IMG/VR virus record: IMGVR_UViG_3300010052_000158
Span: 1-40,168 of that record
Direction: 5' to 3' (one strand)
DNA: 40,168 nucleotides
Origin: a virus
Taxonomy: Duplodnaviria > Caudoviricetes
Shown here: in pieces, positions 21,822-24,599 of the stretch
How positions within the stretch are numbered: the first letter of the stretch is position 1
How the letters are laid out: each line of letters begins with the position of its first letter
Translations under genes and position numbers: made by a program
The notes under the pieces: model-generated
Told to the model about the DNA's origin: nothing
Database searches by the model: none
What the model saw: the letters and a program-made list of their open reading frames with translations, nothing else

Positions 21822-22343
21822 CTACCCCAGCGGGCTCCAGCCCTCCACTTCGTCAGGCTTGGGCTTGAGCTTGTCGTCAAACGGGTCTTGCTCGAGCTGC
21901 TTCAACCTGCCTTCCAGCATGCGGGTTAGCCACCCGATCTTGAATCCCATCTTGCCAATGTTCTCGAGGATGCTGACCGCCTCGGTGGCGAGGACGATCG
22001 CGATGACTGCGGTGACGACTGTCGAGTGCGCAGCGACCAGGCCCGGCAGATGCCGGGTCACGACCGCGGCGACGATGATGCTCGAACCGTAGGCGACGAT
22101 CTTGACCAGGATCCTGCTGAGCTTCGCGCTTGTGATCGGTTGGCCGGTGGCGAATGCCGCAACAAACCCCGTGATCGTGTCGAGGAACATGAGACTGAAC
22201 GCCGCGATCGCCATGTTGCGCACGACGTCGGTGCCGAACAGATACTCGGAGGCGACAGCCACGAGCACCCCGCCCCACTTGAGGACCGGGTAGTCAGTGA
22301 GGGCCTTGGCCAGATAGGTCGGGATCAGGTGGAGGTCTCTCAT
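21822..22343 (-). CDS. Holin (phage holin 4/toxin-secretion family)
   Basis: Several TM helices, LDTITG, ITSAKL, EAVSILENIGKMG; ATG 22343 overlaps endolysin stop. Confidence 0.85.
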   Translation of the reverse strand: MRDLHLIPTYLAKALTDYPVLKWGGVLVAVASEYLFGTDVVRNMAIAAFSLMFLDTITGFVAAFATGQPITSAKLSRILVKIVAYGSSIIVAAVVTRHLPGLVAAHSTVVTAVIAIVLATEAVSILENIGKMGFKIGWLTRMLEGRLKQLEQDPFDDKLKPKPDEVEGWSPLG

Positions 22344-22897
22344 AGGTCCATCTCGCGGGCCCACTTGCGGATTAGCTCGTCGCTCGCCTCGAAGTGCATC
22401 GCGTCTTCAATCCGGAAACCAGCGCCCCAGTAAAGTCCGTGCTTCTTAGCGATCGCGTAGAAGTCCAGCAGCCCTTTGTAGGTCTTGCCGTCGCCGCGCC
22501 GGTCGACAGCGCCGCCAAAGCCAAGATCGATCGCAGTGCCCCAGCTGTGGTTGCTCGGCTGGCTTGCCGAACCTCGCACCAGGCGAACACACAGGACGCC
22601 CGCATGGCTCATGTCGGCGTAGGCTTCCGGGTGCTTCTCGGCGAACTCGTCGAACACTTTGCCCAGCACAAACAGGAACGGCCGGAAGCCCGTCAGCCTA
22701 AATCGGCCAACGTCCATCGTCACGATGTGCTTGCGAATCCGCGGCGCAACCGAAGTAGCGCCGGAGCAGTCTTGCGTCAGTGGGCCCTTCGGGCGACCGA
22801 ACACCGACACCATCGTGCGCACCGATGCCGGGGAGCACTGAGTGTTGATGGACTCAGCGCGCGGTACGTCAACAAGGCTTCGCCAGTTCTTGCTCAT
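22340..22897 (-). CDS. Endolysin, peptidase M15 family
   Basis: SNHSWGTAID (SxHxxGxAxD) and DAMHFE; ATG 22897 coupled to upstream stop. Confidence 0.88.
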   Translation of the reverse strand: MSKNWRSLVDVPRAESINTQCSPASVRTMVSVFGRPKGPLTQDCSGATSVAPRIRKHIVTMDVGRFRLTGFRPFLFVLGKVFDEFAEKHPEAYADMSHAGVLCVRLVRGSASQPSNHSWGTAIDLGFGGAVDRRGDGKTYKGLLDFYAIAKKHGLYWGAGFRIEDAMHFEASDELIRKWAREMDL

Positions 22898-23022
22898 TCG
22901 GGCTTCTCGCAATCTTCGTAGTCACGCTCGATCATCGGCACAGGCAAGCCGCAGCTGAGCCATGCGTAAAACACGATCGCGCCAACGACGAACCCAAAGA
23001 AGAACAGACCGAGTGGAGTCAT
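22894..23022 (-). CDS. 42-aa single-TM protein at head of lysis cassette
   Basis: MTPLGLFFFGFVVGAIVFYAWLSCG...; stop overlaps endolysin ATG; start 23022 preferred over 23136. Confidence 0.55.
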   Translation of the reverse strand: MTPLGLFFFGFVVGAIVFYAWLSCGLPVPMIERDYEDCEKPE

Positions 23023-23294
23023 GGCGTTTCGGGAGGCCCCGCGCGTAACTACGGGGCCCATGGAGGGAGGTTCTCGTCGAGGCGGCCCGGGTGCGTTACG
23101 TCCGGACACTTGATTGGACCCACTGGCGTCGCCCACCCATGGCCTAGCCTGCTCGATGTGTTACGATGGGGCCGCGTCGGGGTCCAAAGATGAAGGGCAG
23201 GTCAGCAGGCTTTTATGCGGTTACCTGCAGAGCGATGAATCTAACCAGTTGGCCGAATCGTTAGCCAGCCGCCGCATTGCGTTCCTGCCCAACT

Positions 23295-23369
23295 TGGGTG
23301 CGGGTGCCGAATTCGAACCGGCGACCTGGAGGTTATGAGTCTCCCGCGCTACCACTGCGCCAACCCGCA
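23295..23369 (-). tRNA. tRNA with CAU anticodon (Met-like), CCA encoded
   Basis: UGCGGGU/ACCCGCA acceptor; GCGC-AGUGGUA-GCGC D arm; GGAGA-CUCAUAA-CCUCC; GCCGG-UUCGAAU-UCGGC; C-CCA. Confidence 0.9.
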
Positions 23370-23488
23370 GAAACTGATTAGCCGCCGGAACCCGCGCCAG
23401 GACGAGCGCGGAGCCGGGAACGACCCGCCGACAATCCTTATCAACGGGCATCGGAGCTACCCCAAACGGATGCTCCGGCGACTTTCGC

Positions 23489-23526
23489 AAACACAAAAGC
23501 CCCACCACGAGACGCAGTGAGGCCCT
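23489..23526 (-). terminator. Intrinsic terminator-like hairpin upstream of tRNA/late genes
   Basis: AGGGCCUCACUGCG-UCU-CGUGGUGGGGCUUU (14 bp, 5 G-U) running into UUUUGUGUUU. Confidence 0.6.
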
Positions 23527-23574
23527 GAAAACGACGATATTGATTCAAAAGACGCAAGTGTCGCGTGAAAAGTT

Positions 23575-23946
23575 TCATTCGACCACACATTCTCTGTGAT
23601 TGAACTCGGCACGGTCGCACTTGTAACCCGCAGCCAAGAGCACACCGACCATGTTCGATGCGCCCCACGGGTTCCACGAGTGCACGATCACTCTGCCGAT
23701 TCGCGGCAAGTTCTCAGCGATCCATTCGGCGACCGCCATCCCGCTCCGCTCGTGGTTCCGTTGCAAGTCATCGTAGTGCTGAGGCTCTAGGTCGTGGTCC
23801 AGAGAGACAACATCCCAAACGCCACAACTCAACTTGCTTATCGCTCCATCGACGTCGTGGACAATCGTGACCTCATGGGCGTCCTTGTTCGCCCAGTAGA
23901 ACGCGCCGCAGCGTGAGTGATCGTCGTCGAGAAACAGAATCCTCAC
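23575..23946 (-). CDS. Cyclic-phosphate-processing receiver-like domain protein
   Basis: GTG start overlapping upstream TGA; ILFLDDD, SLDHDL, SGMAVAEWI, VIVHSWNPWGASNM motifs. Confidence 0.75.
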   Translation of the reverse strand: MRILFLDDDHSRCGAFYWANKDAHEVTIVHDVDGAISKLSCGVWDVVSLDHDLEPQHYDDLQRNHERSGMAVAEWIAENLPRIGRVIVHSWNPWGASNMVGVLLAAGYKCDRAEFNHRECVVE

Positions 23947-24599
23947 GCCGCCCCCCTTCTCGAATCGCTCGCGATCCAGATTCGGATTTCGTTCAGTGTC
24001 GTCGTCAGCTGCCCGCCCGGTTTCCAAGCCATCAGCCGCCCGTCCCGCGCTGCGTCCCTCGCCGACGTGATCGCACGACGGTCCTTCGCCTTCGCCGTCG
24101 CATTCCACTTCTCCAGCGCCTCGGCCAGCTTGTAGGGCACGAGCTCCTCACACTTGACCGTGCCCGTAGCCCGCACCGCGTCCGCCGTGATCATCATCGG
24201 GTTCGCTTTGTACCAGCGTTCCCAAACCTCATCGACCGCGCTCGGGTCGCCTTTCAGCAGGTGGGCCCGACAGTGATGCCACTCGAAGTTACGCTCGAAG
24301 AACAGCTCGACGTGGAGGTACGCGAGGTAGCGCCGGTCGATGTGGATCTCGCCGGCCACCGGATCGGCCTTCATCGTGCGTTCAGGGTAACCATCGGGGC
24401 CGATGCGGCCTACCGACCGCTCGACCTCCGCCAGGCGCGGCGAGTAGCAGTAGGACCGCCACCAATCGAGCACCTGGTCAGCGGGATAGAAACGCAGTTC
24501 AAGTGACGGCATCCATGCTCTCCTAGACTCAACTTTCGGTGCCACTCCGGTGCCACTCATCGGGCTCACCGGGCGCGCAATTTCGCACAGAAAACTCAC
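23943..24599 (-). CDS. Hypothetical protein; possible late-gene regulator by position
   Basis: Coupled ORF between replication genes and late region; no recognised motif. Confidence 0.5.
   Translation of the reverse strand: MSFLCEIARPVSPMSGTGVAPKVESRRAWMPSLELRFYPADQVLDWWRSYCYSPRLAEVERSVGRIGPDGYPERTMKADPVAGEIHIDRRYLAYLHVELFFERNFEWHHCRAHLLKGDPSAVDEVWERWYKANPMMITADAVRATGTVKCEELVPYKLAEALEKWNATAKAKDRRAITSARDAARDGRLMAWKPGGQLTTTLNEIRIWIASDSRRGAA

Follow-up and report, generated by a model that had tools for sequence, protein, structure and literature searches.

Organization of the locus

The window, that is, the whole stretch of DNA analysed here, is an entire provirus record of 40,168 bases. It encodes a temperate tailed phage with an integrase, a repressor, RecT, a replication initiator, a terminase, a portal protein and head genes, and the single named relative of its terminase, from a Fimbriimonadaceae bin (54% identity), gives a weak hint on the host. 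A hairpin-rich stretch of 508 nt fills the gap between the cREC_REC gene and a 42-aa hydrophobic ORF, which is followed by the endolysin, holin and terminase genes, all on the minus strand (Table 1). Given this gene order, the stretch is likely the head of the late operon. Credible genes are absent from the gap: neither the 95-aa ORF nor the 80-aa ORF, a longer call of the 42-aa ORF, has a family match in PHROGs or Pfam.

Table 1. Coordinates of the structured elements and their flanking genes in the window
Feature	Position	Strand	Details
cREC_REC receiver-like gene	23575..23943	-	PF20274, E 1e-14; directly upstream of the array
Conserved 27-nt block	23530..23556	-	nearly identical in L394 despite diverged flanks; single copy in the window
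First hairpin, terminator-like	23496..23526	-	13-14 bp, U-rich tail; z -4.7; stem kept in L394
Module A, ~102 nt	23381..23482	-	closing helix 23482-23475/23388-23381 around three hairpins
tRNA-Met(CAU)	23295..23369	-	encoded CCA; ARAGORN; RF00005, 57.4 bits
Module B, multi-pseudoknot RNA	23195..23290	-	closing helix P0 23290-84/23201-195
Module B, P1	23282-79/23233-30	-	2 of 4 pairs in the window copy
Module B, P2	23276-72/23220-16	-	
Module B, P3 hairpin	23270-47	-	
Module B, P4	23228-24/23209-05	-	
Module B, conserved strands	23245-42; 23223-21; 23215-10	-	GUUA; UAA; UAAAAG
Module C	23114..23187	-	8-bp closing stem UUGGACCC/GGGUCCAA; interior ambiguous; contains CGUAAC
Two hairpins	23034..23107 (23107-23085, 23059-23034)	-	loops CGUAAC and GUUACG complementary
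42-aa hydrophobic ORF	22894..23022	-	translation; first gene past the array
Endolysin (Peptidase_M15_4) and holin	21822..22912	-	then terminase, portal and head genes (late operon)

The cREC_REC ORF as called (23575-24108) begins too early, since relatives indicate a start near 23940. This gene is accessory: it is present in the related locus L394 and absent from contigs of the metagenome runs X2 and X6, where the joints run from 23556/23578 to 23943/23957. PF20274 is a stand-alone cyclic-phosphate-processing receiver domain, and this variably present gene adjoins a tRNA and a ribozyme candidate. Further upstream, a ~189-aa protein (23943-24599, minus strand) has eight homologues and no PHROGs or Pfam match; its gene abuts the array directly in the relatives without the cREC gene. 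It is a candidate late activator.

Lambdoid phages have tRNA-bearing late leaders in the pR'/tR' region. The present stretch shares with them the position in a gap between early/middle and lysis genes, a terminator-like hairpin, a tRNA and variability between relatives. Unlike in the lambdoid leaders, no Q-like gene was identified and three further structured modules are present.

The tRNA proposed earlier was recovered as a tRNA-Met(CAU) at 23369-23295. Initiator tRNA-fMet is determined by a C1-A72 mismatch together with three G-C pairs at 29-31/39-41. The phage tRNA is initiator-like, yet reading off its sequence gives U1-A72, C73, A29-U41, G30-C40 and an A31-C39 mismatch, and U1-A72, A29-U41 and A31-C39 depart from these determinants. 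In the X11 relative, contig depth sums suggest three G-C pairs at 29-31/39-41. As discussed in PMC10264068, phage tRNAs have been proposed to escape anticodon nucleases, and tRNA-fMet tends to be avoided by phages.

Folding and modularity of the stretch

The earlier note had described the stretch as one ornate RNA of a GOLLD/ROOL-like or new non-coding class or, alternatively, as a series of small RNAs cut from the late transcript. Folding of the whole stretch speaks against a single RNA: the minimum free energy (MFE) of the 508 nt is -214.4 kcal/mol compared to -213.8 for shuffled sequences (z -0.09; 47 of 100 shuffles do as well), the 3' half (23290-23023) has a z of +0.60, and when the genome is cut into 79 tiles and folded locally, 5 tiles do at least as well. 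By contrast, the 5' third folds clearly better than its shuffled controls on the minus strand (z -4.4). The 5' stems that had been named do fold on that strand, at 23526-23496 (z -4.7), 23477-23452 (z -4.5), 23449-23423 (z -4.3) and 23417-23385 (z -2.6), these individual z values being inflated by the post hoc choice of stretches. The argument that G-U pairs point to selection on the minus-strand RNA is borne out as well, with a z of -4.41 for 23530-23375 compared to -1.09 on the plus strand; G-U pairs account for 16 of the 64 pairs in the six named hairpins. GUAAC indeed occurs at 23224, 23164 and 23099, with 0.13 occurrences expected per 508 nt for this motif picked post hoc.

For the domain at 23290-23195, the GGGCAGG/CCUGCCC closing stem is present as claimed, but it encloses a pseudoknotted core that had been missed and that lies beyond the reach of programs scoring nested folds. 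The GUAAC at 23224 belongs to this core. The claim of a new class of non-coding RNA accordingly holds for one ~80-nt module, termed module B, and not for the whole stretch. Likewise, the search for homologues and covariation that had been suggested succeeded for module B, which covaries across its copies, whereas full-length homologues of the stretch are few and exchange their blocks singly.

Since related phages drop or exchange whole pieces, the stretch most probably forms a modular array of RNAs with which the late operon begins. The evidence comes from differences among metagenome contigs assembled from five runs (X2, X6, X10, X11 and X17), one of them of depth 2. This X17 contig (depth 2) skips 23370-23489, and one X6 contig has 136 other nucleotides in place of the tRNA with both flanks kept. 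L394, whose upstream protein is 84% identical, is almost unchanged over 23556-23497 and diverges beyond. The indels of relatives in the 5' hairpins are confined to loops or stem tips. Counter to full modularity, 23305-23078 shows no differences in an X2 contig. The alternative of a small-RNA array in the late transcript fits these gains, losses and swaps of modules.

At the 5' end of the array, the conserved 27-nt block is inferred to be a late promoter or activator site from its position, as it has no match to a sigma-70 consensus. The larger 60-nt block at 23556-23497 (L394:1080-1140) contains UGCGUCU twice, once before the hairpin and once inside it, and is a candidate for a late promoter plus attenuator. 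A terminator scan matched the first hairpin, with three matches in total against 1.1 +/- 1.3 in shuffles. Module A has an MFE of -56.8 with its closing helix, and 23490-23380 gives a z of -2.9; it lies within the block skipped in the X17 contig, is absent after the first hairpin in L394, and has no homologue among the collected homologue loci. Past the first hairpin of L394 (1160-1200), the string UGUGGCGG resembles the start of module B, and the contig ends within it.

At the 3' end, module C has a z of -0.4 and is nearly invariant in four related contigs (X2, X6, X10 and X11), while the alignment ends here in two others; a 17-mer from it gave no viral matches. The loops of the following two hairpins (23100-23095 and 23050-23045) can form a 6-bp duplex of -7.4 kcal/mol, and GUUAC is kept in relatives, so that a kissing pair is possible. 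A pattern search for such kissing loops returned 120 matches with a flat, chance-like spacing, of which one had both halves in hairpin loops and none resembled the window. Among the matches, an unrelated viral contig (L401:501-867) carries four tandem repeats with a period of ~104 nt.

Structure and covariation of module B

Module B is a real, covarying RNA family of four helices, P1 to P4. The core of ~70-80 nt is arranged in the order P1, A-W, P2, C, the P3 hairpin, R-GUYA, a CAUC linker, P1', P4, UAA, P2', UAAAA(G) and P4'. P1 crosses P2 and P2 crosses P4, forming a nested double pseudoknot in which all of these helices covary, and many unpaired bases are near-invariant among the copies. 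The window contains one copy (model R1, 55.1 bits).

Homologues were collected with two patterns. The 16-mer from 23223-23208 matched exactly in 106 viral loci, 100 of which also have the upstream half, and a second pattern that leaves four P2 pairs free matched 22 genome loci and at least 119 viral loci (~230 estimated). Among 155 distinct parsed copies, four (L134, L138, L139 and L152) were removed by eye as chance matches ahead of any counting, leaving at least 151 distinct copies including that of the window. A search with the 5' half alone yielded 92 distinct strings; by script parse, 61 of them run on into the 3' block, 50 with the exact tail, which shows that the conserved tail is not an artefact of the search pattern.

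Mutual information over the 151 copies ranks highest four pairs of P4 (94-99% paired), two of P3 (92-98%) and two of P2 (96-97%), followed by the fifth P4 pair (79%) and then P1 pairs (74-98%). In a 67-sequence alignment, selected on the exact 16-mer and counting related phages more than once, 96.3% of cells are paired compared to 76.4% after shuffling, and the covariation is 0.496, a value reached by none of 500 shuffles (0.111) and by no slid control (at most 0.116). As this alignment was picked by the 16-mer, the covariation of P2 is taken from the 151-copy analysis instead. In a close relative, two pairs of P4, 23226/23207 and 23227/23206, have undergone compensatory swaps. A fifth helix between GUYA and UAAY is possible and shows no covariation, its third pair failing in 59 of the 151 copies. 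A closing helix that links both ends is found in 39 of 151 copies, including that of the window, against 11.6 with shuffled partners. In L088, L114 and L149, long closing stems (-22 to -25 kcal/mol) enclose the motif.

Genomic context of module B

Copies of module B are found mostly in uncultured phages, and some lie in bacterial and archaeal genome bins. They usually sit 5-20 nt past a stop codon, next to many different genes: the start of module B is at most 30 nt past the upstream stop codon in 107 of 150 copies, with a peak at 5-7 nt, counts that carry no control for compact genomes. Some copies lie 9-16 nt upstream of a start codon. A terminator-like hairpin follows module B in 50 of 141 copies, compared to 13 in the control window. 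A stimulator of stop-codon readthrough or frameshifting was rejected, as the frame is open through module B in just 2 (frame 0), 4 (-1) and 2 (+1) of 85 copies.

With near-duplicates set aside, 92 of the 177 proteins flanking module B were scanned (52 upstream and 40 downstream). PHROGs matches were obtained for 20 of the 52 upstream and 17 of the 40 downstream proteins and revealed no single gene family, but nucleases, primase/helicase, ssDNA-binding proteins, DNA polymerase, endolysin, ParB and others. DNA polymerase makes up 6 of the 40 downstream proteins scanned, which also include Sak4, gp2.5, a methylase and an adaptor.

Two copies of module B occur on each of six contigs, and in three of these (L214, L191 and L112) they are directly in tandem; the L214 pair is immediately 3' of an initiator-like tRNA-Met. 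A tRNA-Met precedes just 3 of the 134 other copies that have 250 nt of upstream DNA, and one copy precedes a tRNA-Thr; tRNA processing is therefore not the general job of the family. In the window, P0 begins 5 nt and P1 13 nt past the CCA of the tRNA, and P1 lies tens to >150 nt past the tRNA in L114, L143 and L214. L143 (1244-1565) belongs to the cultured strain Cerasicoccus frondis NBRC 105381 and contains, in this order, an unusual tRNA-Met, ~170 nt that are apparently non-coding and module B, with a RecT operon downstream. This region may be a second array of the kind seen in the window.

The bins with module B are titled Verrucomicrobiota, Blastopirellula, Acidobacteria, Kaiserbacteria, Bathyarchaeia and Methanophagales, although bins may be contaminated and the titles are perhaps not the true hosts. 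The Bathyarchaeia copies are surrounded by cellular-type genes. Of the archaeal-bin copies L535, L536, L154 and L145, three lie among genes of this type (MFS, transposase, methyltransferase and alanine racemase). Model R1 matches 1 of 151 genomes of the phylum of the Bathyarchaeia bins, and in 401 genomes of the Cerasicoccus phylum the pattern matches at chance level, a rough negative given by a loose pattern.

Comparison with known RNAs

Module B is a well-supported structured RNA family that is absent from Rfam. An Rfam scan of the window returned the tRNA as its sole match, also at E<=10, and module B matched no family in Rfam 15. Scanning 40 of >300 homologue loci (20 at E<=1 and 20 at the gathering score) gave one weak unrelated match and three tRNAs. 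When phages and plasmids in GenBank were searched with the region by BLAST, just the tRNA or chance matches came back. As for relatives of the array as a whole, none of 25 terminase-related loci carried the motif and one had an unrelated tRNA; scans of viral contigs with the endolysin and the upstream protein found no array homologue, the metagenome pattern search gave none, and a metagenome protein scan gave one 1.2-kb contig. A literature search of incomplete coverage found the motif of module B under no name. Four supplement files of PMC10690425 contain no match to the motif strings or contig ids, and module B may be among the 10,006 anonymous viral candidates of that work. The short RNA assemblies in the available part of a preprint (10.64898/2026.07.01.735769), comprising manA, EGFOA and k-turn RNA, do not include it either.

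By the features compared, copies of module B contain no known ribozyme core. The closest architecture is that of the HDV-like and theta ribozymes (PMC10879173), which share with module B a phage-borne, compact nested pseudoknot in the order P1-P2-P3-P1'-P4-P2', lying here 3' of a tRNA. However, the P3 loop of module B varies in length and sequence, with no conserved P1.1 loop and an L3-like hexamer in 9 of 181 copies; P4 is a further pseudoknot that closes after P2', P1 has 4 bp, and the J4/2-like strand is UAA or GAA, lacking a catalytic C. In addition, unlike theta ribozymes, P1 does not start within +/-5 nt of the tRNA 3' end, and none of the 3 in 134 other copies that follow a tRNA abuts it. 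An HDV-like or theta identity therefore fails on the catalytic C, on L3/P1.1 and, for theta, on the distance from the tRNA.

Module B shares with twister ribozymes a UGYR helix that has a near-invariant A two bases upstream of it and GC plus a variable hairpin after it, as well as an A-rich strand ending in GC. Twister ribozymes also have two pseudoknots, GC/GC among them, a conserved L4 and a G after P2'. In module B, the 3' G for the 2-bp pseudoknot is missing from 9 of the 61 copies retrieved without 3' bias, and the C is engaged in P4 instead. Together with this 3' G test, twister identity is rejected by the lack of Rfam matches (P1, P3 and P5 models) and by the twister L4 motif, found in 0 of 181 copies. 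The hammerhead core of CUGAnGA plus GAAA is likewise not found; CUGAnGA occurs in 1 of 181 copies.

Among larger or terminator-linked phage RNAs, GOLLD (RF02032) and ROOL (RF03087) share with the stretch a prophage location near tRNA-Met, dense predicted structure and possible loop-loop pairing. The stretch differs from them in having no model match, no conserved full-length homologue and pieces that are exchanged separately. The GOLLD covariance model did not match at the gathering score or at E<=10, nor did the ROOL model, for which one of the searches had no positive control. Conservation as one large RNA, as in GOLLD and ROOL, is not seen here, since blocks are swapped and full-length homologues are few. 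Drum, skipping-rope, DUF3800-I and FuFi-1, as described in PMC5737381, resemble module B in being complex conserved RNAs often next to an intrinsic terminator; unlike them, module B has no Rfam match or associated protein family, and terminators follow about one third of its copies.

Proposed function of module B

With a likelihood that we put close to even, the stretch is a row of separate late-leader RNA modules in which module B is a candidate self-cleaving or RNA-processing element. Self-cleavage is suggested by the size, the knotted fold, the conserved unpaired bases, the tandem copies, the patchy spread and the lack of a partner gene. The ~70-80-nt module B has the pseudoknots and conserved unpaired bases by which ribozyme candidates were chosen in PMC10085705, and theta ribozymes (PMC10879173) provide a precedent for tRNA-flanking phage ribozymes. 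We propose that the late transcript would start near 23530, at the conserved block 23556-23530, and then pass the terminator-like first hairpin. Host enzymes would free the tRNA-Met, and module B, needing no dedicated protein for folding, would cleave the long late transcript beside the tRNA. In other phages, where the copies mostly lie 5-20 nt past a stop codon, such cleavage would set gene units apart or cap them.

Several points weigh against self-cleavage. In PMC5737381, downstream terminators were held to be at odds with it, and three terminator-followed motifs failed to cleave; the terminator-like hairpin after 50 of 141 copies argues against it in the same way. Ten similar-looking motifs were assayed in PMC10085705 and none cleaved, so that the success rate of ribozyme candidates in these two sources is poor, and P1 of the window copy has only two of its four pairs.

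A more specific version, which we regard as possible though rather doubtful, takes module B as a new structural class of ribozyme of ~75 nt with three interlocked pseudoknot helices, which would punctuate transcripts behind stop codons or tRNA-Met in aquatic phages and archaeal genomes. Here it would sit in a swappable late-leader cassette whose 3' modules may pair loop to loop.

It is unlikely that module B is instead a nuclease barrier, i.e. a knot that halts a 5'-to-3' exonuclease in the manner of an xrRNA or blocks 3'-to-5' trimming and thereby fixes a stable RNA end downstream of a gene or tRNA. Such a role would suit the crowding of copies behind stop codons (the 107 of 150 copies given above, with the same reservation about compact genomes), the indifference to neighbouring genes and the frequent terminators. 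Flaviviral xrRNAs combine a junction that includes a 5'-end pairing with a loop-to-tail pseudoknot, and the helix order of module B is reminiscent of them by analogy. However, 39 of 151 copies, including that of the window, have a helix joining the two ends, which is unexpected for a 5' barrier; the near-invariant unpaired bases exceed what a 3' barrier needs, and our literature search found no precedent for a phage xrRNA.

It appears quite unlikely that module B is cut out or terminated to yield a small RNA of its own with a function in trans, such as that of a protein decoy in the way of drum or skipping-rope. The terminators after 50 of 141 copies and the closing helices are in line with it, as are the archaeal-bin copies amid cellular-type genes, some on the opposite strand, and tandem copies would raise the dose. 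Nevertheless, module B has no common partner gene, unlike drum, skipping-rope and DUF3800-I, and most copies lie so near a stop codon that there is no room for a separate promoter.

We consider it improbable that module B is a cis-regulator that controls the following terminator or start codon, be it as a riboswitch aptamer or as a put-like antiterminator. Behind many copies come a terminator and a DNA polymerase gene (6 of the 40 downstream proteins scanned), in some the distance to a start codon is 9-16 nt, and the window copy is within a late leader. Yet the genes that follow are of unrelated kinds (polymerase, Sak4, gp2.5, methylase, ParB, adaptor and unassigned), in place of the constant position 5' of functionally related genes that marks a riboswitch. 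Nor is module B a regular host feature: in one archaeal-bin phylum a single genome out of 151 matches, pattern matches in the 401 genomes of the Cerasicoccus phylum are at chance level, and the window copy is downstream, not upstream, of the terminator-like hairpin.

A single GOLLD/ROOL-like RNA of ~500 nt, with the tRNA in a variable linker and possible multimers through the GUAAC/GUUAC loops, is very unlikely too. GOLLD and ROOL do occur close to tRNAs in prophages, a tRNA is sometimes present within a GOLLD linker, and env-38 lies after a Met-tRNA (PMC12286853); one relative swaps the tRNA yet retains both flanks, the X2 contig is identical over 23305-23078, and the loops 23100-23095 and 23050-23045 are complementary. 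Against these stand the overall z of -0.09 and the lack of any Rfam match for GOLLD or ROOL at E<=10, the occurrence of module B alone in all other copies, the absence of modules A and C from every collected homologue locus, the relatives that drop module A or everything past the first hairpin, and the GUAAC at 23224 that is part of the module B core.

Implications

Dense hairpins flanking a phage tRNA need not signal a giant RNA of the GOLLD/ROOL type. According to PMC10761166, 12 classes of small self-cleaving RNAs are known, and module B, compact, strongly covarying and missing from Rfam, offers with its ~150 versions a ready ribozyme candidate. Should module B turn out not to cleave, it would remain a clearly defined new family of phage RNA, and its tight placement behind stop codons would then point to an unrecognised way of setting the RNA ends of phage operons.
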